Part shown: in pieces, positions 3,379 through 27,494 of the stretch
Layout: the number at the start of each line of letters is the position of its first letter
Position numbering within the stretch: the first letter of the stretch is position 1
Program-made: the position numbers and the translations under genes
Source of the DNA: Myxococcota bacterium
Lineage (GTDB): Bacteria > Myxococcota_A > Polyangia > Polyangiales > Sandaracinaceae
Reading direction: 5' to 3'
Length of the DNA stretch: 30,652 nt
NCBI GenBank assembly: GCA_036149055.1
Contig: JAYZQJ010000068.1
Span: 1 to 30,652 of the forward strand
Notes under the pieces: model-generated
The model's input: the letters and a program-made list of their open reading frames with translations, nothing else
What the model was told of the DNA's origin: nothing
Database searches by the model: none

Positions 3379-4290
3379 GTGCTCGGTGAGGTCTGGCAGA
3401 CGCTGCGCGAGACGGTGCGCGCCTTCAACGCGCGCGGCGGGCGGGTGCTCGGCGCGGCGACCGCGTTCTACGCGATGCTGTCGGTCGCGCCGATGCTGCT
3501 CCTCGCGATCGCGGTCACCGGCATGGTCACCAGCGAGGCGTCGGCGCGCGCCGAGGTGGTGCGCGACGCGTCGATCTGGGTCGGGCCGCGCGGCGCGGAG
3601 CTGCTGCGGGAGCTCCTCGCGCGCCTCTCGGACGGCGGCCACGGCCCCTTCGCCAGCGTGCTCGGCGGGGTGCTCGTGCTCTACGCCTCGCACCGCCTCT
3701 TCGCCCAGATGCGCTACTCGCTGAACCACATCTGGGGCGTGCAGGAGGAGTCGGCGCGGGGGCTCTCGAAGAAGGCCCTGAAGCAGGCGCGCAAGCGGCT
3801 GAGCGCGCTGACCATGGTGCTGCTGGTGGTGATCTGCGTGGCGACCACCGTGCTGCTGAAGGCCGGGCTGCACGCCGCGTCCGACTGGCTCGCGCTCGAT
3901 CTGAGCGGGAGCTGGCGCGCGCTCGAGCTCGGCGTGTCCTTCCTCGTGCTCACCGCGCTCTGCGCCGCCTCGTTCAAGGTGCTGCCGGCGGTCGAGCTCG
4001 GCTGGCGGGACGTCGGCGTCGGCGCGCTGGTCACGTCGGTGCTCTTCAGCGCCGGGGCGGCCGCCATCGGCTGGTACCTCGGCACCAAGAGCACCGAGTC
4101 GACCTACGGCGCCGCCGGCTCGCTCGTCGCGGTGCTGCTGTGGTCGTACTACTCGGCCCAGGTCTTCTTCTTCGGCGCCGCCTTCACGCGGGTGTGGGCC
4201 GAGCGCCACGGCGCGGGGATCGAGCCGTCCGAGGGCGCGGTCTGGCTGGTGGCCGAGGCGCCGGAGCGCGCCCGCGATCAGCGCCCCTGA
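3379..4290 (+). CDS. yihY: YihY/virulence factor BrkB family membrane protein (303 aa)
   Basis: Motifs GAATAFYAMLSVAP, LNHIWGV and STYGAAGSLVAVLLWSYYSAQVFFFGAAFT, with multiple TM helices. Confidence 0.9.
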   Translation: MLGEVWQTLRETVRAFNARGGRVLGAATAFYAMLSVAPMLLLAIAVTGMVTSEASARAEVVRDASIWVGPRGAELLRELLARLSDGGHGPFASVLGGVLVLYASHRLFAQMRYSLNHIWGVQEESARGLSKKALKQARKRLSALTMVLLVVICVATTVLLKAGLHAASDWLALDLSGSWRALELGVSFLVLTALCAASFKVLPAVELGWRDVGVGALVTSVLFSAGAAAIGWYLGTKSTESTYGAAGSLVAVLLWSYYSAQVFFFGAAFTRVWAERHGAGIEPSEGAVWLVAEAPERARDQRP

Positions 4291-4610
4291 ACCGGGTACT
4301 TGGCCCGGTTCTTCGCCAGCTTGCGCACCATCGCCTCGCGCAGGTCGATGCCGGCGCGGTCGCAGAACATCAGCAGGCAGATGGCGACGTCGGCCGCCTC
4401 GTCCTGGAGGCGTGAGGCGTTGTCGGGATCGGCGCAGAACCGATCGGCGTCCGCGTTGTCCACCCACCGGAGCTCGGCGGCCAGCTCGCCGGCTTCGCTC
4501 ACCACCGCCATCGCGAGGTTCTTGGGATCGTGGAACCGCTCCCAGTCTCGCTCACGCACGAACGCCCGGATGTCCTCGAGCACCTCGTCCAGCCCTTCCA
4601 GGTCCAGCAT
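4278..4610 (-). CDS. MazG-like nucleotide pyrophosphohydrolase (dCTPase-like), ~110 aa
   Basis: FVRERDWERFHDPKNLAMAVVSEAGELAAELRW...DEAADV...KLAKNRAKYP. Start placed at ATG 4610 (or GTG 4613). Confidence 0.9.
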   Translation of the reverse strand: MLDLEGLDEVLEDIRAFVRERDWERFHDPKNLAMAVVSEAGELAAELRWVDNADADRFCADPDNASRLQDEAADVAICLLMFCDRAGIDLREAMVRKLAKNRAKYPVQGR

Positions 4611-4629
4611 CACCGTGCACGTTTGCCAC

Positions 4630-4670
4630 CGTGTCGCCTCATGCGCACGCGTGTCGCCAGAATGCCGCAC
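4630..4670. promoter_or_regulatory. Direct repeat (CGTGTCGCC..ATGC[C]GCAC x2, 20-bp period), candidate activator binding site
   Basis: CGTGTCGCC occurs at 4630-4638 and 4650-4658, about 80-115 bp upstream of the inferred sigma54 start site. Confidence 0.45.
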
Positions 4671-4720
4671 CGGATCCGCCGCACCCCGGTTCTGGGGACC
4701 CGAAATGGGCCTGCAACGGA

Positions 4721-4736
4721 TGGCACGAGGGCTGCA
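4721..4736 (+). promoter_or_regulatory. Sigma54 (-24/-12) promoter
   Basis: TGGCACGAGGGCTGCA against the consensus TGGCACG-N4-TTGCW, with exact GG-N10-GC spacing. It is intergenic and followed by an RBS and a short ORF. Confidence 0.7.
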
Positions 4737-4763
4737 CTACCTCAGGGCCTGATGGAGAACGCC

Positions 4764-4841
4764 ATGAAGACCCTGATTCGATTCTTCACCGCTCGCATGA
4801 GCTACCGCGCTCACATGATGCGCGCCGTCGCCACGGCGTGA
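4764..4841 (+). CDS. Putative 25-aa small protein MKTLIRFFTARMSYRAHMMRAVATA
   Basis: GGAG at 4754-4757 lies 6 nt before ATG 4764, directly downstream of the sigma54 box. An alternative in-frame ATG is at 4752 (29 aa). Confidence 0.5.
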   Translation: MKTLIRFFTARMSYRAHMMRAVATA

Positions 4842-4863
4842 AGGCCGCAGCTGCCCGAACCGA

Positions 4864-4894
4864 GGCGGAACGTCACGCTCGTGACGTCACCGCC
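4864..4894. terminator. Hairpin between convergent transcripts (no U-tract)
   Basis: GGCGG-A-ACGTCAC-GCTC-GTGACGT-CA-CCGCC forms a two-part stem between the small-ORF stop (4841) and the TPR gene stop (4908). Confidence 0.4.
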
Positions 4895-4907
4895 GCAGCC
4901 CGTGACC

Positions 4908-7900
4908 TCATGACTCGCCGATCGACTCGAGGAACTGCGCCGCCTCGCTGAGCGAGTCGTCTTCCAGCCGCGCGCGTCGCGCCCAGAGCACGGCCTTCTG
5001 CTGATCCCCCTGGCGGTGCGCGATCTGCGCCTGCCTCAAGAACGCCAGCGCCTTGCTCATCGGCCCCGGCGTCTTCTGCAGGGTGACCACCCGGAGCGCC
5101 TTCAGCGCCGTGTCGTCGTCGCCCAGCTCCATCGAGAGCTCGGCCAGCTCCGCCGCCACGTCGCCGTTGTTTTTGTCGGCGTCGAGCGCGACGCTGAGCC
5201 ACTCCTTCTGGGTCTCGGCGTCGCCGCTGATGCCGGCGATGCGGGCCATGCGCAGCTGCATCGCCGCGAGGTGCGGGCTGCGGCGGCGCTTGAAGCCGTT
5301 GATCGCCTCCTGGAGCAGCTCCACCGCCTCCTGGAGGCGGCTGCTGCCCATGTAGGCGTCGGCCAGCGCGATGGTGAGGTCGTGGTCGTCCGGCTGGATC
5401 GCGGCCGCCTGGGCGAGCGGCTCGAGCGCCGCCTCCGCCTCGCCGACCTCGTTCAGCAGCTCGCCCGCCCGCCGGAAGGCCTCGAAGCGAGCCTCGGCGT
5501 CTTCGGCCGCGTGCGCGTCCTGCAGGACCATCTCGGCCAGCTCCCGCTTGGCGCCGATCTCCTCGTAGAGGCTCTTGAGCGCCTCGCGCAGGGGCCCGGA
5601 GTCGGGCTGGTGGTGCAGGGCGTACTCGAGGCCCGGGCGGGCCTCGGCGGGCGCCCCGATCTTGCGGCACGCGTCGAGCAGACCGAGCCCGGCCTGGACC
5701 TGGGCCTCGCCCTCCTCGACCTCGAGCAGCCGCGCGTCGTGCCGGGCGACCTCACCCCAGCGCTCGGCGGCCTCGTCGACCGTGCGCAGCTGCCGGAGCG
5801 CGTCTCCGTCGCGGGGATCCCGCTCGACCCACTCGGCGAGCACGTCGCGGCCCTGCTCGGGGTTGCCGGCCTCGGTCAGCACGCCGGCGAGCCGGTGCGT
5901 GGCCGCGCGCTCGGCGTCGAGGTCGCCCGCGTGCGCCGCGTCCCGGCGCAGCTGGTCGAGCCCGGCCACGAGGTCCTGCGCGGTGTCCGCGGCCGAGATG
6001 GCGTAGGCCTCCTCGAGGTCGGTGACCGCGGGGGCCGCGTTGCCGAGGGCCAGCTCGAGGCGGGCCCGCAGCCGGAGCAGGTGCGCTCGCTCGGCCCCCG
6101 GCTCCTGGAAGCGCTCGAGCGCGGTGGCGACGTCCTCGGCGGCCGCGGAGTGGAGCCCGGCGGCCGCGAGATCGGCGACGAGCGCCTCGAGCAGCGCGAG
6201 GTCCTCGGGCGCCTTCTCGAGCGCGCCGCGCATCACCTCCGCCGCCTTGGACGGATTCTGGAGCTGCTCGCGGTAGATCTCCGCCGCCTCGCGGAAGCGG
6301 GGGAGCGCCTCCTCGGCCGTCTCGCGGTTCGCGGCGTCGTAGCGCACCGTCTCGGCGAGCTGATCCCACTCCTCGCGCTCGCGGTAGTACGCCTCGAGCT
6401 GGCCGCGCAGGGTCGCGTCGCCCGGGGCCGCCTTGAAGCCGAGGTCGAGCGCGCGGGCCACCCCGTACTCGTCGTCGAGCTCGCGGTAGAGGCCCATGAG
6501 CTCGTTCGCGAGCTTCGCGCCCTCCTCGCCGCTGGAGACGGCGAGGAGCCGCTCCATCAGCTCGGCCCGCTCGCGCGGGTCGGCGCCCTCGCCGTAGTGC
6601 GCGAGCAGGGCCTCGAGGAGGGGCGCGCTCTGGGCCGCCCAGTCGAGCCCGCCGCGGTAGAGCTCCACCGCGCCCGCCGGGTCGTGGGGCTCGAGCAGCT
6701 TGCCCATGCGGAGGCTCAGCTCGACGATGGTCTCGACGTCCTGACGGTCGCGGGCCCGGTCGAGCTGCCGGTGCAGGAGATCGACGAGCCGCTGGTCGTC
6801 GCCGGTCGCCTGGAAGATGTCGGCCAGGCGCTGCGCCGCCTCGACGTGATCCGGATCCTCGTCGAGCACGTTGGTGAGGATGACCACCGCCTCGTCCTGC
6901 GCCTGCTCCACGTCGAGGAGGAACTTCGCGTAAAACATGCGCAGCTCGTTGCGGTCGCCCGGATCGAGCAGGGCGTCGAGCGTGGTGGCCACGACCTCCT
7001 CGAGCCCGTCGCGATCCTGCAGCTTGGCGTAGACGCCGGCGAGCGGCTCCCAGAGCTCGCGGTTGCTCGGGTCGGAGCCGAGCAGCTCGCGGTAGGTGCT
7101 CGCCGCGAGCTGGAGGTCGCCGCCGTCCTGGCTCGCGAGGTCGGCCACCCGCATCCAGAGCCGGAAGGCCTCGTCGCCCTCGGCGACCTCGGCCGCCGCC
7201 CGCATGTGGGTGATGGCCGCGCCGACGTCGCCCGCCGCCGCGCGCCGGTCGGCGAGCGAGATGGGCACCCAGAGCGCGTCCCGCAGGCCGCCCTCGGACT
7301 CGCGCGCGATGTCGAGGCCGCGGGTGAGGAGCGCCTCGGCGCGGTCTCCCGCCTCCACCGCGTCCGCCCGCTCCACGCCCTCCCGGACGTGCTCGAGCGT
7401 GGCGTCCGGGCGCGCGGCGCGCCGCTCGAGGAAGTCGAGCACCATGGCCGGGTCGCCCGACGCGCGCGCCACCTCTTCGTAGAGCGCGAGGAGCGCGTCG
7501 TGCTCGGGCGCGTGCGCCGCGGCGGCCTGGAGGATGGCGCCGGCGCGCCCGTAGCGGGGCTCGCGCTCGAGGGCGCCGTTCAGGGTCTCGAGGCCGGCGT
7601 CGACCTCACCCCCGGCGAGCTGCACCTCGGCGATCCGGTAGAGCGCCTTGGTGCGCGCCTCGTTCGGGACCTGCGCGGCGTCGGCGTCGACGAGCTTGCG
7701 CAGGACGCGCACCTCCTCGGCGCCGTCCCCGCGGGCGTCGGCCACCCGGGCGAGGGACTGCCAGGCCTCGACCACGCGCTCGCCGAGCTTCTCGACGCGC
7801 TGGTAGAGCTCCGACGCCGCGTCGAGATCGCCGAGGTCCTCCTCGGTGACCCGGCCGAGCCGGAGCAGGATGCCGGCCGCGAACGGGCCGTCCTTCTTGC

Positions 7901-10900
7901 GGCGGGCGCCGCTCGCGAGCTCCTCGAGCAGCTCGGCGTAGCGCTGCACCTGACCCATGCCGTGGGCGAGGTCGCGGGCGCGCCGGTGCAGCGACGGGAG
8001 CTCGGGGGCGAGCTTGACCGCGGAGAGCAGCGCCTCGAGCGCCTCGTCCTTGCGGCCCTGGTGCTCGGCGAGGATGTGCGCGCGGTGCGCGAGCATCTTC
8101 GCCTCCGACTCGGGGGCGTCGACCGCCTCGAGCCGCTTCTCGATGGTGGTGAGCGCGAGCTCCACCTCGCCGCGGGCGAGGAGGTCCTTCTCGAGCCGCT
8201 CGGCCTCCGCGTCGTGCTGCGCGGCCGTGCTGAGCGCGGTCTCGAGCAGCTCCTTGGCCTGGGCCTCGTCCTCGTTGTCGCGGGCGAGGAGGCTCAGCTC
8301 GTAGAGCACCTCGGAGGCGCCCACCTGCACGTCCGGCGCGCCGGGATCCTGGCGCCGGACGACGAGGAGGAGCGCGCGGTAGGACTTCTCGGCCTTCTCC
8401 CGCTGCCCCGCCTCGCGCGCCATCTGACCGGCCATGCGCAGGATGCCCGGGTGGCTCATGTCCATCTTCCGGGCGGACTCGAGCTCGCTCATCGCCTGCT
8501 CGAGGTCTCCGCCCGCGTGGGCCACCTGGGCGAGCTGGTAGTGCACCGCGGCGCGCTCGGGCGAGCGACGACGGCCGAACGCCTCGATCTGCGCCTGCAG
8601 GATCTCGCGCGCCTCGTCGAGCCGCCCCGCGACCCGGAGCCCGAGCGCGAGCTTGCTCTTCAGGGTCTGGTCGTCGGGCGCGATCTGCACGCCCATCTGG
8701 AGGACCGGGATGGCCTGATCCGGCTGCTCCAGCTCCTCCTCGTAGAGCTTGGCGGCCTCGCGCACGTAGGCGAGGCGCGTGGCCTCGTCGGTCTCGTGCG
8801 GCGCCCCCTCCGCCAGGAGCCGCGCGAGCGGCTCGAACGCCTCGTCGGCGCGGTAGAGGTCGGCGAGCCGCGCCCGGGCGTCCGACGCCGTCGGGTCGGC
8901 GGCGAGCACCCGCTCGAAGACCCGCGTGGCCTGCTCGCGGTTGCCGGCCGCGAGGTGCGCGTCGGCGAGCCGCAGCGCGACCTGGGTGCGCTCCGCGTCC
9001 TCCGACGCCTCGAGCCGCCGCTGCAGCCACTCGGCCGCGACGCCCGGCTCGTTGCGGGAGAGGTGCAGGCGCGCGAGCGCGTCGAGCGAGGGGATCGACG
9101 GGATGATCGTGACCACCCGGCGGTGCGCCTTCAGCGCGCCGTCGATGTCGCCGAGCGGCTCCTCGAGGAGCTGCGCGGCGCGAGACCAGAGATCGGCGGC
9201 CCGGCCGGCGTCTCCCTGCTGCTCGACCTCGGTCGCCTGCGAGGTGAAGAGCTCGCCGAGCTCGTCGTGACGCCCGCGGGCGGCGAGGATCTCGGCGAGG
9301 CCCTCCACCGACGCCTCGTGGCCCGGCTGCTCGGCGAGGTTGGCGCGGAGCGCGCCGATGCGGCCGCCCTGCTGCTCGATGAGCCCGAGCACCCGCGACA
9401 CCTCGAGCCGCACCGCGAGGCGCGTCTCCGGGTCGAGGTCGAGCTCGAGCTGACGCTGCCGGAGGGCGAGCAGCTCGGGGAAGCGGCCGCGCTCCTCGAG
9501 CAGCACGCCGAGCTGGGTGACCGCCTCGGCGTCCTCGACGCTCTCGTCGACCACGCTCTGCAGGAGGCGCAGCGCGCGGTCCTGGTCGCCGAGCTGGTCG
9601 CGGCAGAGCTCGCCGGCGCGCCGCCGCATCTCCCGCGAGGCCTCCGGGCTCACCGGCATGCGCGCTCCGTCGACGAGGAGGTCGACCGCGCGCGCGGTCT
9701 CCCCGGCCTCGAGCGAGAGCCGGACCAGCTCGTCCTGGGCCCAGACCGCCATCTCGCCGGCCGGGCGCTCCCCGGTGGCCTCGCCGGTGCCCTCCCAGAG
9801 GCGCCGCGCGCCGCGGAGGAGGCGGTCGAGGATGGTGGCGGCGAGCTGCGCGTCGCCGACCGGATCGAGCGCCGTCTTGGCCGCGTCGTAGAGCGGGTCG
9901 AGATCGTCGGGGAAGTTGTCCGCGAGCTTGAGCAGCGTCTCGACCAACGGGCGACCGGGGCTGCGCCACTGGAGCCGCGCGAGGTCCCGGAGGGTGTCGG
10001 TGTGCCGCGGCTCGTGAGTGAGCGCGCGGTGCAGCGCCGCCTCGGCCGCCTCGAGATCCTCGGCCTGATCGCGGAGCCAGGTGCCGACCCGCGCCTCGAG
10101 CGCGCGGCCGAGCTCTCCGTCCACCTCGCCGGCGAGCGGGATGGCGGCGGCGGTGCCCGCGGCGAGCGCCGCGAACGCGCCCGCCTCGGAGGCCTTCGCC
10201 TCGATCGAGGCGAGCAGGTCGTCCTGCATGGCGTCCTTCGCCACCGCGCAGCGCACGAGCGCCTTGGCCGCGCCGCTCCAGTCGCCGGCCGCGCCGCCGA
10301 CCCGGATCGCCTCGGCGGCGACCTCGGCGTCGTGGGGCACGAGGGACTGGGCGGAGAGCCAGGCGGCGAGCGCCGCCTCGGCGTTGTCGAGCCGCTCCTC
10401 GCTGATGCGCGCCTGCTGCTTCCGCAGCGCCGCGGCGCGCTCCTGGCGCGTCTCCGAGAGCGCGGCCGCCGCCTCCCCGAGCGCGTCGGCCGCCTCGGAC
10501 CAGCGCTCGGTCCCGAGGGCCAGGCGGAGCAGCTCCGCCTCCAGCTCCGGGTTGGCGGGGGCGAGGCCGAGCGCGCGCCGGATGGCGTCGAAGGCCAGGG
10601 CCGGCTGCTCGGCGCGCTCCTCCTGGAGCCGGGCCGCCTCGCGCAGCAGGTCGACGCGCTCGGCGTCGTCGAGGGCGTGATCCAGCCGCGGCTCCAGGAG
10701 CGCGAGGGTCTGCTCCCAGTCGTCGGCCAGCTCGTAGGCGGTGGCCAGGCCGCGCACCGCCGAGCCCCGCGCCTCCTCCACGTCGAGGAGCTGCCGCAGG
10801 CCCTCCTGGGCGCGCTCGAGCCCCGGCACCATCTGGATGGCGCGGTGGTAGGCCTTGGCCGCCTCGTCGAGGCGCCCGAGGTGGCTGCGGCACACGTCGC

Positions 10901-12701
10901 CGACGCGCGCGAGCACCTCCGCCGCCCGCGCGGCGTCGCGCTCGGAGGCGCGCCCGAGCAGGGCGTAGATCTCGTCGAAGCGCTCGGCGCGCACGAGGAG
11001 ATCGAAGAGCGCGTCCACCGTCTCGGCGTCCTCGCCGAACTCCTCCTGGATCTGGTGCCAGGTCTGGATGGCCTCGCCGATCTGCTCCAGGCGCGCGGCC
11101 TGGGTGTTGGCGATGCGCGCGAGATCGAGCCGGCGCTGCAGCGCGGGGACGTCGGCGCCCACCCGGCGGCGGAGCGCGTCGACGTGGAGATCCCAGCGCT
11201 CCTCGCGCTCGGTCAGCTCGATCATCGCGTCGAGCGCCTCGAGATCGGAGGCGTCCGCCTCGAGCCGGCGCTGCCAGAAGCCGAGGGCCCGCTCGCCCTC
11301 CCCGAGCCGGTCGGCGAGACGCGCGCACTGGCCGAGGACGCGGCGGCTCTCGACCGGATCGGTCTCGAGCTCGGCGAGCTCCTCGAGGACCACCAGGCGG
11401 TCCGCGTAGCGCTCGGCGTCGTCGAGGAGCTTCTCGACCCGCCGCGCGACCGTCAACTTGGTGTTCGGGCGCGCATCCGCCGCGAGCACCCGCTGGTAGA
11501 GGGCGATGGCGCCCTCCTGATCGGCGAGCCGACCGGAGCGCACGTCGCCCGCCTCGACGAGGAGCGCGTACTGGCGCGGGCCGGGCTCGGCCGCGTCGGC
11601 CGCGGCGACGAGGGCCTGCGCGTAGGTCTCGTGCGCGCCCGCCTGGTCGGCGAGGTGCGCGAGCTGCTCCTGCGCGTCCTCGGCCGCGGGGTCCTGGACG
11701 AGCACCGCCGCCCAGTGGGTCATCGCCTCGCCCGACTCGCCGCGCGCCGCGACGCGCCGGCCGAGCTCGCGGTGCAGGGCGAGCTTCTCCTCGCCGGCCG
11801 CGAAGCCGAGCGCGACCCCGACGACCCGGATCACGTCCTCGGCCCGATCGGCGGCCTCGTAGCGCTCGCGCAGCAGGTCGAGCGCGCCCCGGCGCACCTC
11901 AGGCGCGGCCTCGCCCTGGGCGACCACGCGCTCGAGCAGCTCGAGGTTGGGCGCCTCGTCGGCCCCCGACTCGAGGAGGCCGCGCACCTCGCTCAGGGTG
12001 GAGGCGGCGTCACCGAGGTTGTCGAGGTAGCAAGCGGCGATGCGCTGCCGCATCGCGAGCGAGTCGGCCTCGGACGCGCCCTCGGTCCCGCGGCGCCAGA
12101 GCTGGATGAGCTCCTCCCAGCGCTGCTGGCGCTCGAGGAGACGCTCGAGGCTGGAGACGAGCTGGCCGTCGGAGGGGCGCAGCGCGAGGAGCTGCGAGAG
12201 GTAGTCGATCGCCCGGTCGGGGGCGCCCGCGAAGTCCTTGGCGAGCTGCGCGGCCTCGTCGAGCAGCTGCTCGCGACGCGCGTCGTCGCCGGCCGCGGCG
12301 AGGCAGCTGTCGTAGATGGCGAGCAGCTCGGACCAGCGCTCGCCGACCGTGAGCACGACCGTCACCCGCTGGAGCGCCCAGTCGGCCTCGGGATCGATCT
12401 CGAGCACCCGCGACAGGACCTGGACGAGGTGAGGCGAGTCCTCGGCGAACCACTGCTCGTGGAAGCCGGCCGCCCGCTGCCCCAGGGACTCCGCGAGGTC
12501 CCGGCTCAGATCCTGCGCGAGCACCGACCGATAGAGCGCGCCGACCTCGTCCGGGCGCTGGGTCTGCTCCGCCAGGTCCTCGAGTCGGTCCCAGCACGCG
12601 TCGTTCTCGGGATCCGCTTCGGCCGCCGCCAGCGCCTCCGCGAGCTGGTCCCCAGCCTCCGAGCCCGTCACGCCCCCCTCGCGGGGAAGATCCTCTGCCA
12701 T
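4908..12701 (-). CDS. Giant tetratricopeptide-repeat-like alpha-solenoid protein (~2597 aa), myxobacterial AgmK/GltI-like architecture
   Basis: Uninterrupted ORF rich in A/E/L/R, with recurring TPR-like units (A..LY.RVL..DP....A...L..L). No signal peptide or TM helix seen. Start moved to ATG 12701, which has GGAG upstream. Confidence 0.85.
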   Translation of the reverse strand: MAEDLPREGGVTGSEAGDQLAEALAAAEADPENDACWDRLEDLAEQTQRPDEVGALYRSVLAQDLSRDLAESLGQRAAGFHEQWFAEDSPHLVQVLSRVLEIDPEADWALQRVTVVLTVGERWSELLAIYDSCLAAAGDDARREQLLDEAAQLAKDFAGAPDRAIDYLSQLLALRPSDGQLVSSLERLLERQQRWEELIQLWRRGTEGASEADSLAMRQRIAACYLDNLGDAASTLSEVRGLLESGADEAPNLELLERVVAQGEAAPEVRRGALDLLRERYEAADRAEDVIRVVGVALGFAAGEEKLALHRELGRRVAARGESGEAMTHWAAVLVQDPAAEDAQEQLAHLADQAGAHETYAQALVAAADAAEPGPRQYALLVEAGDVRSGRLADQEGAIALYQRVLAADARPNTKLTVARRVEKLLDDAERYADRLVVLEELAELETDPVESRRVLGQCARLADRLGEGERALGFWQRRLEADASDLEALDAMIELTEREERWDLHVDALRRRVGADVPALQRRLDLARIANTQAARLEQIGEAIQTWHQIQEEFGEDAETVDALFDLLVRAERFDEIYALLGRASERDAARAAEVLARVGDVCRSHLGRLDEAAKAYHRAIQMVPGLERAQEGLRQLLDVEEARGSAVRGLATAYELADDWEQTLALLEPRLDHALDDAERVDLLREAARLQEERAEQPALAFDAIRRALGLAPANPELEAELLRLALGTERWSEAADALGEAAAALSETRQERAAALRKQQARISEERLDNAEAALAAWLSAQSLVPHDAEVAAEAIRVGGAAGDWSGAAKALVRCAVAKDAMQDDLLASIEAKASEAGAFAALAAGTAAAIPLAGEVDGELGRALEARVGTWLRDQAEDLEAAEAALHRALTHEPRHTDTLRDLARLQWRSPGRPLVETLLKLADNFPDDLDPLYDAAKTALDPVGDAQLAATILDRLLRGARRLWEGTGEATGERPAGEMAVWAQDELVRLSLEAGETARAVDLLVDGARMPVSPEASREMRRRAGELCRDQLGDQDRALRLLQSVVDESVEDAEAVTQLGVLLEERGRFPELLALRQRQLELDLDPETRLAVRLEVSRVLGLIEQQGGRIGALRANLAEQPGHEASVEGLAEILAARGRHDELGELFTSQATEVEQQGDAGRAADLWSRAAQLLEEPLGDIDGALKAHRRVVTIIPSIPSLDALARLHLSRNEPGVAAEWLQRRLEASEDAERTQVALRLADAHLAAGNREQATRVFERVLAADPTASDARARLADLYRADEAFEPLARLLAEGAPHETDEATRLAYVREAAKLYEEELEQPDQAIPVLQMGVQIAPDDQTLKSKLALGLRVAGRLDEAREILQAQIEAFGRRRSPERAAVHYQLAQVAHAGGDLEQAMSELESARKMDMSHPGILRMAGQMAREAGQREKAEKSYRALLLVVRRQDPGAPDVQVGASEVLYELSLLARDNEDEAQAKELLETALSTAAQHDAEAERLEKDLLARGEVELALTTIEKRLEAVDAPESEAKMLAHRAHILAEHQGRKDEALEALLSAVKLAPELPSLHRRARDLAHGMGQVQRYAELLEELASGARRKKDGPFAAGILLRLGRVTEEDLGDLDAASELYQRVEKLGERVVEAWQSLARVADARGDGAEEVRVLRKLVDADAAQVPNEARTKALYRIAEVQLAGGEVDAGLETLNGALEREPRYGRAGAILQAAAAHAPEHDALLALYEEVARASGDPAMVLDFLERRAARPDATLEHVREGVERADAVEAGDRAEALLTRGLDIARESEGGLRDALWVPISLADRRAAAGDVGAAITHMRAAAEVAEGDEAFRLWMRVADLASQDGGDLQLAASTYRELLGSDPSNRELWEPLAGVYAKLQDRDGLEEVVATTLDALLDPGDRNELRMFYAKFLLDVEQAQDEAVVILTNVLDEDPDHVEAAQRLADIFQATGDDQRLVDLLHRQLDRARDRQDVETIVELSLRMGKLLEPHDPAGAVELYRGGLDWAAQSAPLLEALLAHYGEGADPRERAELMERLLAVSSGEEGAKLANELMGLYRELDDEYGVARALDLGFKAAPGDATLRGQLEAYYREREEWDQLAETVRYDAANRETAEEALPRFREAAEIYREQLQNPSKAAEVMRGALEKAPEDLALLEALVADLAAAGLHSAAAEDVATALERFQEPGAERAHLLRLRARLELALGNAAPAVTDLEEAYAISAADTAQDLVAGLDQLRRDAAHAGDLDAERAATHRLAGVLTEAGNPEQGRDVLAEWVERDPRDGDALRQLRTVDEAAERWGEVARHDARLLEVEEGEAQVQAGLGLLDACRKIGAPAEARPGLEYALHHQPDSGPLREALKSLYEEIGAKRELAEMVLQDAHAAEDAEARFEAFRRAGELLNEVGEAEAALEPLAQAAAIQPDDHDLTIALADAYMGSSRLQEAVELLQEAINGFKRRRSPHLAAMQLRMARIAGISGDAETQKEWLSVALDADKNNGDVAAELAELSMELGDDDTALKALRVVTLQKTPGPMSKALAFLRQAQIAHRQGDQQKAVLWARRARLEDDSLSEAAQFLESIGES

Positions 12702-25967: not shown

Positions 25968-25971
<4 letters not shown>
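25363..25971 (+). CDS. Cys-rich hypothetical lipoprotein (202 aa)
   Basis: Lipobox LLTA-C, a DSG/DAG linker and eight further cysteines. TAGGCT lies 6 nt upstream of the ATG. Confidence 0.75.

Positions 25972-27494
<1,523 letters not shown>

Follow-up and report, generated by a model that had tools for sequence, protein, structure and literature searches.

A gap of 297 bp between a MazG-like gene and a giant TPR gene contains a sigma54-type promoter box, and the question raised by this locus is what that promoter serves. The window, i.e. the whole 30,652-nucleotide stretch of DNA that was analyzed, belongs to a 9.9-Mb genome of the Sandaracinaceae (G000). The initial annotation proposed a hidden unit composed of a repeat, a box, a GGAG, an ORF and a hairpin, and every one of these elements was located again at the same positions. 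The length of the gap holds given a MazG-like start at ATG 4610, which is the start chosen by the gene callers (110 aa).

Layout of the intergenic region

Both flanking genes lie on the reverse strand. The MazG-like nucleotide pyrophosphohydrolase gene (4278..4610; Pfam PF12643, E 9e-8) is divergent from the small gene, while the gene for the TPR-repeat protein (4908..12701, 2597 aa; Pfam TPR families) is convergent, with its stop 66 nt from that of the small gene. On the forward strand the direct repeat CGTGTCGCC occurs at 4630 and 4650 with a 20-bp period (best-conserved motif 4626-4635), and 4626..4670 is a predicted upstream activating sequence. It is followed by the sigma54 -24/-12 box TGGCACGAGGGCTGCA (4721..4736), which reads TGGCACG-N4-CTGCA (GG-N10-GC) and from whose spacing the transcription start is predicted at 4747. 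The segment 4752..4757 comprises a Shine-Dalgarno GGAG (4754-4757) and an overlapping in-frame ATG at 4752. The small protein gene (4764..4841, same strand) encodes 25 aa, MKTLIRFFTARMSYRAHMMRAVATA, with 4 Arg, 1 Lys and no Asp or Glu. A GC-rich inverted repeat with a CGTCAC-N4-GTGACG core, to which no strand is assigned, lies at 4864..4894.

Based on ungapped comparison with the congener of G000, G001, identity was 49/50 in the repeat, 13/17 in the box and 70/78 in the ORF, against 24/48 in the spacer and 9/24 just downstream of the ORF. The GTGTCGC-N13-GTGTCGC pattern of the repeat has a single occurrence in the G000 genome. The alternative ATG at 4752, which would give a 29-aa form predicted by some gene callers (P0001/P0002), is present only in G000 and G001. 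A 103-aa ORF (4530-4841) was rejected, its upstream codons being unconserved and locus L047 (L numbers denote loci) having an in-frame stop just upstream.

Coding evidence and range of the family

The end of the TPR gene was inspected in 19 relatives, and five loci with an ORF of 23-27 aa, carrying the same motif behind a TGGCAC box, were identified. An HMM search added the copy in G010. Three metagenome loci came from a codon pattern, all of them with the box, the mazG-like gene and the TPR gene in the same order. The copy in G002 was missed by the HMM and was recovered only through its box beside mazG. The peptide is encoded at the matching locus in 8/32 Sandaracinaceae genomes and at the three metagenome loci (11 loci), and three further short protein calls bring the family to 14 sequences. 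The carriers found are metagenome-derived. Two of seven genome loci and five of ten metagenome loci matching the pattern were dropped for having neither box nor synteny, and another two of the ten metagenome loci were near-copies of G000 and G001.

Alignment of the 14 sequences gave the motif M-K-x-L-h-R-F-[FL]-h-A-R-x-x-Y-R-A-R-h-x-R-A. From the conserved Met the proteins are 23-30 aa long, stops occurring 23-30 codons after it in 11/11 loci. R11 and R15 are invariant; R6, F7 and R20 are each found in 13/14 sequences (the exception at position 7 is Tyr), position 14 is Tyr in 12 and Phe in two, and Lys never occurs at positions 6, 11, 15, 17 or 20.

The initial annotation had suggested comparing orthologous intervals for box, ribosome-binding site and frame; the box was kept in 11/11 loci, and the divergence was of the codon type. 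Identity by codon position was 0.61/0.75/0.47 among ten sequences, and pN/pS was 0.55 in frame vs 0.76-1.78 in the other five frames. Because four of the ten sequences in these main statistics had been found via the peptide itself (G010 by HMM, three by codon pattern), the shuffle test was repeated on the six synteny-only copies. In these the amino-acid identity was 0.49 vs 0.36 +/- 0.04 in column shuffles (reached by 1/3000), while 2/3000 shuffles reached the observed identity without G001 and 0/3000 for all ten, and the held-out G002 copy had a profile score of 35.2 vs -7.1 +/- 9.7 for its own shuffles (2/20000); relatives are not independent, so that the P values of the column-shuffle and profile tests overstate the case. 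The other 76 sigma54-box ORFs of G000 had profile scores of at most 5.8. Strain SNPs in the ORF, seen in two studies, fall at 4811 and 4826 and are both synonymous. There is no indel in codons 2-23, while the leader length and the 3' region vary freely. By these comparisons, selection acts on the amino-acid sequence of the predicted peptide.

The sceptical explanation is a chance ORF behind a chance box, kept merely by lying between two conserved genes. G000 does contain 188 loose sigma54-like boxes, eight of which have an ORF of at most 50 aa behind them. However, the spacer and the downstream DNA have diverged where the repeat, box and ORF have not, and the unit outlasted two rearrangements. 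On C143 (65668-65683, minus) and C254 (58813-58828, minus) of G000, sigma54 boxes are likewise followed by short ORFs, hydrophobic and of 25 and 36 aa, and for these no matching DNA was found in 5/5 relatives. The divergent spacer, the score of the held-out G002 copy and the 0 reversed-pattern controls (below) make chance hardly credible. The ORF is very probably a functional gene under a sigma54 promoter, and the proposed stand-alone unit with a predicted upstream activator site and a cationic product is supported by box and frame in 11/11 loci and by GGAG before the ATG in 9/11.

The promoter-plus-codon pattern was matched in 8/32 genomes of the family vs 0 reversed-pattern controls, and two of the misses within carrier genera were genomes just 82% and 86% complete. 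Outside the family no credible member was found among 369 genomes of the order and 398 of the phylum sample, which, as the HMM missed G002, means 'not found' rather than 'absent'. The 14 promoter-pattern loci outside the family were all inspected and dropped as chance; reversed-pattern controls gave more loci than these (8 and about 20). Among the 14 is a locus in G165, a genome from a different family of the order, which proved to be the signal peptide of a lipoprotein: from L094:1532 onward a sigma54-driven lipoprotein is encoded, and the n-region of its signal peptide resembles residues 7-15 of the micro-protein, a likeness taken as chance. HMM matches numbering two in the family, five in the order and two in the phylum were also put down to chance after inspection. 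G000 has no paralogue (next HMM match E 0.31), and look-alike starts on its C106 and C76 belong to longer proteins, either membrane-bound or exported. Among 1.84 billion representative proteins searched there were five matches, three of them new and all of 24-84 aa, and no longer homologue; the only longer match was the G010 copy with an over-long called start (8000 candidates scored).

A tree of the last 499 residues of the TPR neighbor (midpoint root, two short rows) placed the 11 carriers and the non-carriers G004 and G014, which are sister genomes, on one 100/100 branch. The carrier label needs two changes on this tree, which fits a single gain and a single loss. Being confined to this one well-supported branch, the small gene is a candidate for recent gene birth. 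Unpublished genome G023 is counted as a non-carrier in this tree and in the 32-genome tallies, and no conclusion rests on it.

As judged from sequence, the small ORF represents a genuine family of small proteins that had no name before, narrow in range and preceded by a conserved sigma54-type promoter. What had been a guess from a single sequence is now a defined family with a conserved promoter, a predicted activator site and invariant residues. The expectation that standard annotation would miss the gene was right in part. The exact 25-aa form and six orthologues are absent from a collection of 15 billion proteins, but several copies have been called with longer starts, unnamed or as 'hypothetical'; gene callers either overlook the small gene or annotate it, without a name, with an extended N-terminus. 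Scanning for sigma54 boxes thus finds small genes overlooked by profile searches and gene callers. No account of such a family, or of myxobacterial micro-proteins driven by sigma54, appeared in the literature listings and abstracts searched, and catalogues like sORFdb (PMC11796252) could hold a copy.

Promoter, neighboring genes and 3' region

A sigma54 box precedes the ORF in 11/11 loci, 13-61 nt upstream of the ATG. The predicted leader is about 2 to 50 nt long, and two of the 11 loci look leaderless (ATG at about +3). The strict sigma54 boxes of G000 usually have CTGC at -12 and often an ATG 22-28 nt later, and the unit in the window is alike. The sites of enhancer-binding proteins (bEBPs) lie 80-150 bp upstream of sigma54 promoters, and here the predicted activator repeat spans about -121 to -77 relative to the predicted start. 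A Gibbs search identified the motif MCRnCGYGTS 84-96 bp before the box in 7/9 non-redundant members, with a 9-mer score of 59.9 vs 51.0 in the best of eight shuffled sets; it is weak in G005 and L051, and palindromic models came close to shuffles (56.7 vs 54.6). From the motif to the start codon of the mazG-like gene the distance ranges over 15-71 nt (15-33 nt in four of the mazG-adjacent loci), and in G010 the motif moved along with the inverted small-gene unit. The fixed distance to the box, the variable distance to the mazG start and the co-travel in G010 suggest that the repeat motif is likely part of the sigma54 promoter, and 4626..4670 is predicted to be a site for a sigma54 enhancer-binding protein.

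For the Nla28 regulon of Myxococcus xanthus, boxes of the type TGGCACG-N4-TTGC are described that are accompanied by tandem half-sites within about 25 bp of each other (PMC9765219). The window resembles these promoters in its type of box, which has one mismatch to TGGCACG-N4-TTGC(T/A), and in its tandem repeat with a period of 20 bp; unlike them, its motif does not match the half-site CT(C/G)CG(C/G)AG of Nla28 (PMC9765219). The motif was not enriched before other sigma54 boxes of G000 (4/188 at >=10 bits vs 1.4% at random places), so no regulon indicates a pathway. The best other match in G000 (C69:48843-48858, minus, 15.2 bits) lies 77 bp before a weak box and precedes a possibly leaderless 223-aa lipoprotein-like ORF; it is within chance for 188 boxes. 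The window also encodes, at 25968-27494 (minus) and 21 kb off, a sigma54 enhancer-binding protein with a PocR sensory domain, for which no link to the small-gene promoter was found.

Eight of the 12 listed runs of RNA libraries were examined, all as assembled contigs, and five of the runs cross the promoter. Depth is flat along one 10-kb contig that spans the locus. Contigs end at 4759 (X4) and 4783 (X8); both ends derive from a single sample and cannot mark a transcription start. The best-matching libraries are seawater metagenomes.

The initial annotation had argued that the next gene is convergent and that no large gene can be the target of the promoter. This stands for the window and for 9/11 loci, in which the TPR gene is directly convergent, but a co-directional gene follows in G002 and G010. 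A leader peptide (attenuator or arrest) was rejected on the same grounds, the next gene being convergent in 9/11 loci and the two co-directional cases having differing genes. The MazG-like gene adjoins the small gene in 10/11 loci; in G011 (93% complete) no mazG-like match was found although the peptide is present. Neither the MazG-like nor the TPR gene is a constant companion of the small gene, and the unit was kept through two rearrangements.

Several observations concern the neighbors themselves. A conserved TGCTA-type element ends 10-11 nt before the mazG-like ATG in L024, L025, L043, L047, L051, L057, L054 and L058 (CGCTA in L058), a position which suggests that the mazG-like mRNA is leaderless and starts from an extended -10 promoter; in the window itself the element is degenerate. 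The cluster name of the TPR neighbor is 'tetratricopeptide repeat protein [Sandaracinaceae bacterium]'. Other giant TPR ORFs of 1737-3865 codons, related to the 2597-aa protein, are present on C157, C142, C252, C167, C181 and C125 of G000. An assignment of the neighbor as GltI/AgmK was unsupported, the 3856-codon paralogue on C157 being only 31% identical in the C-terminal part. In G010 (L057) the small-gene unit is inverted and another gene is inserted, and the last 99 codons of the TPR neighbor (L057:4251-4548) align in two frames, through a frameshift or an assembly error.

The RNA itself could be the active product, either as a small or dual-function RNA or through transcription that reads on, antisense, into the giant TPR gene at its 3' end; the ORF would then be secondary. 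Region 4860-4900 folds better than all 200 shuffles (z -2.83), the hairpin of L047 is strong too (z -5.75), and in G017, L043 and L051 the small-gene stop is 2-4 nt from that of the convergent gene, so that the two mRNAs must overlap; the same spacing leaves no room for the hairpin there. The 3' regions of G001, G005, G008, G010, G011 and G002, however, fold like shuffles (z -0.3 to -1.4), and the RNAalifold consensus of ten sequences has only 7 pairs and -4.5 kcal/mol. Third codon positions are the least conserved, the unit is kept also where the TPR gene is not opposite to it (G002 and G010), and Rfam gave no match near gathering (best 20.2 and 15.1 bits vs gathering scores of 60 and 45).

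A precedent is the Pxr sRNA of M. xanthus, which is driven from sigma54. Like the unit as predicted here, Pxr is transcribed on its own as a short RNA in an intergenic gap, and its range is narrow and lineage-specific (PMC5568312). Pxr is described as non-coding, with three conserved stem-loops, and adjoins the bEBP gene nla19 (PMC5568312). Unlike Pxr, the small gene has a conserved frame and no conserved structure, no adjacent bEBP gene and no Rfam match. The sRNA or dual-function alternative of the initial annotation is therefore not upheld, given the lack of conserved structure, the variable leader length and the absence of the hairpin in three members, and an RNA as the active product is decidedly improbable.

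The inverted repeat has no U-tract and no terminator-like sites were found in it (0). Its core is present in 4/10 members (G000, G001, G005 and L047), and the repeat is dispensable to the predicted unit. The core recurs at other intergenic sites of G000 and may thus be a DNA site; the repeat is possibly a stem at the 3' end of one or the other convergent mRNA, or a site of DNA binding. GTGAC/GTCAC half-site arrays (GTGACGTCAC, often with N4-GTGAC) were identified at C279:93990, C263:13124, C127:1031, C186:9632 and C196:12348 and in the window at 4870-4889, and are possibly the site of a DNA-binding protein. On C279 of G000, a sigma54 box follows about 70 nt downstream of the array. On C127, positions 870-1052 comprise a 46-aa hydrophobic ORF and then a dense GTGAC array, and positions 1212-2780 a 522-codon gene whose start is FHA-domain-like by eye.

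Possible action of the peptide

The core of the peptide is 23% Arg and 0.6% acidic over the 14 sequences. The net charge of the peptide is +5 to +7. AlphaFold2 drew a single helix (pLDDT 90.8, pTM 0.43), as it does for most short peptides. On a helical wheel, L4, F7, F8, R11, Y14, R15, M18 and position 22 share the sector of 220-340 degrees, placing the invariant arginines within the hydrophobic face. Aromatics and arginines fixed on one face suggest a specific groove rather than a lipid surface. Apparently some 25 residues have an entire sigma54/enhancer circuit to themselves, and this argues for a regulatory role that depends on a signal.

On balance we favor a bEBP-switched sigma54 promoter whose helical, arginine-rich product would dock on, and regulate, a specific acidic protein partner. 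On a signal, one of the 64 bEBPs of G000 (eight relatives have 37-88 bEBP domains) would bind the repeat and open the promoter at 4747. A short mRNA, about 100-160 nt here and leaderless in two relatives, would be translated from ATG 4764, and the peptide would remain cytoplasmic and fold as a single helix upon binding. The face formed by L4/F7/F8/R11/Y14/R15/M18 would then fit an acidic, hydrophobic groove of the partner and tune or block it, as IF7 blocks glutamine synthetase or as DUF1127 proteins bind PhoR.

In cyanobacteria IF7 (gifA) is a small basic inhibitor with its own tightly regulated gene, and its conserved arginines are the binding determinants for the acidic site of the enzyme (PMC6316151); it serves as a model for possible action. 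Unlike the micro-protein, IF7 is a 7-kDa protein under NtcA control. IF7/IF17 gave no sequence match to the micro-protein, there is no link to nitrogen genes at the locus, and nothing in its context singles out glutamine synthetase as the partner.

Besides proteins, arginine-rich helices also bind RNA and membranes. A membrane-active role on anionic lipid head groups, whether as self-toxin, as membrane modulator or as antimicrobial against prey, would agree with the positive net charge, with the amphipathic first 11 residues (hydrophobic moment 0.29-0.55) and their aromatic cluster. Residues 11-22, on the other hand, have nearly no moment (0.02-0.14), and the invariant arginines lie in the hydrophobic face. 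Lipid binding is usually less strict about Arg vs Lys, and no such swap is seen at five positions in the 14 sequences. An h-region is lacking, and in none of the loci mapped does a transporter, protease or immunity gene adjoin the small gene. Predatory myxobacteria do secrete antimicrobial proteins (PMC8538405), yet we regard a membrane target as unlikely. A type I toxin or small membrane protein was rejected, no membrane span being found in ten members (best 19-residue Kyte-Doolittle mean -0.33 to 0.89).

The peptide might also bind RNA, the ribosome or another polyanion via its arginines, in the manner of the DUF1127 protein CcaF1. The Arg content, the fixed spacing of R6-R11 and R15-R20 and the conserved Tyr/Phe, suited for stacking, fit such a role. 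DUF1127 (which we take to be PF06568) has an acidic L-x-D-x-G end. This end is lacking in the micro-protein, which shares with the DUF1127 proteins its shortness, Arg-richness and charge but is about half their length, has no Pfam DUF1127 match in 14/14 members and ranges over Sandaracinaceae rather than alpha- and gammaproteobacteria. Against RNA binding also stand the absence of any RNA-binding family match at E up to 10, a conserved hydrophobic patch (4, 5, 7, 8, 9) occupying half of the helix and the lack of a conserved co-transcribed sRNA. Small DUF1127 proteins (Agrobacterium SDPs, YjiS, CcaF1) are reported to bind PhoR or RNA (PMC12501420), CcaF1 binding RNA (PMC12501420; PMC8034643); for the micro-protein a polyanion target is doubtful.

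Family searches gave no Pfam match in 14/14 members at E up to 10, apart from GRIP in one member (E 0.13, 12.6 bits vs a cut-off of 24.4), and no NCBIfam match in the 6/6 members scanned; PHROG, PDB and ESM Atlas returned nothing usable for the peptide. Likenesses to the LYR and IQ motifs and to Flp-pilin leaders had no Pfam support and were set aside.

A more far-reaching reading is a two-level switch, in which a bEBP on the repeat would shut the divergent leaderless MazG-like promoter and fire the sigma54 unit, the helix arginines then plugging the acidic active site of the MazG-like enzyme. We regard this as a long shot. A predicted complex between the peptide and a MazG-like dimer had a score of 0.00 and a mark of 0.32, which speaks neither for nor against it. 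If true, the switch would mean that a micro-protein which arose in a single myxobacterial lineage is dedicated to inhibiting the sanitising of the nucleotide pool.
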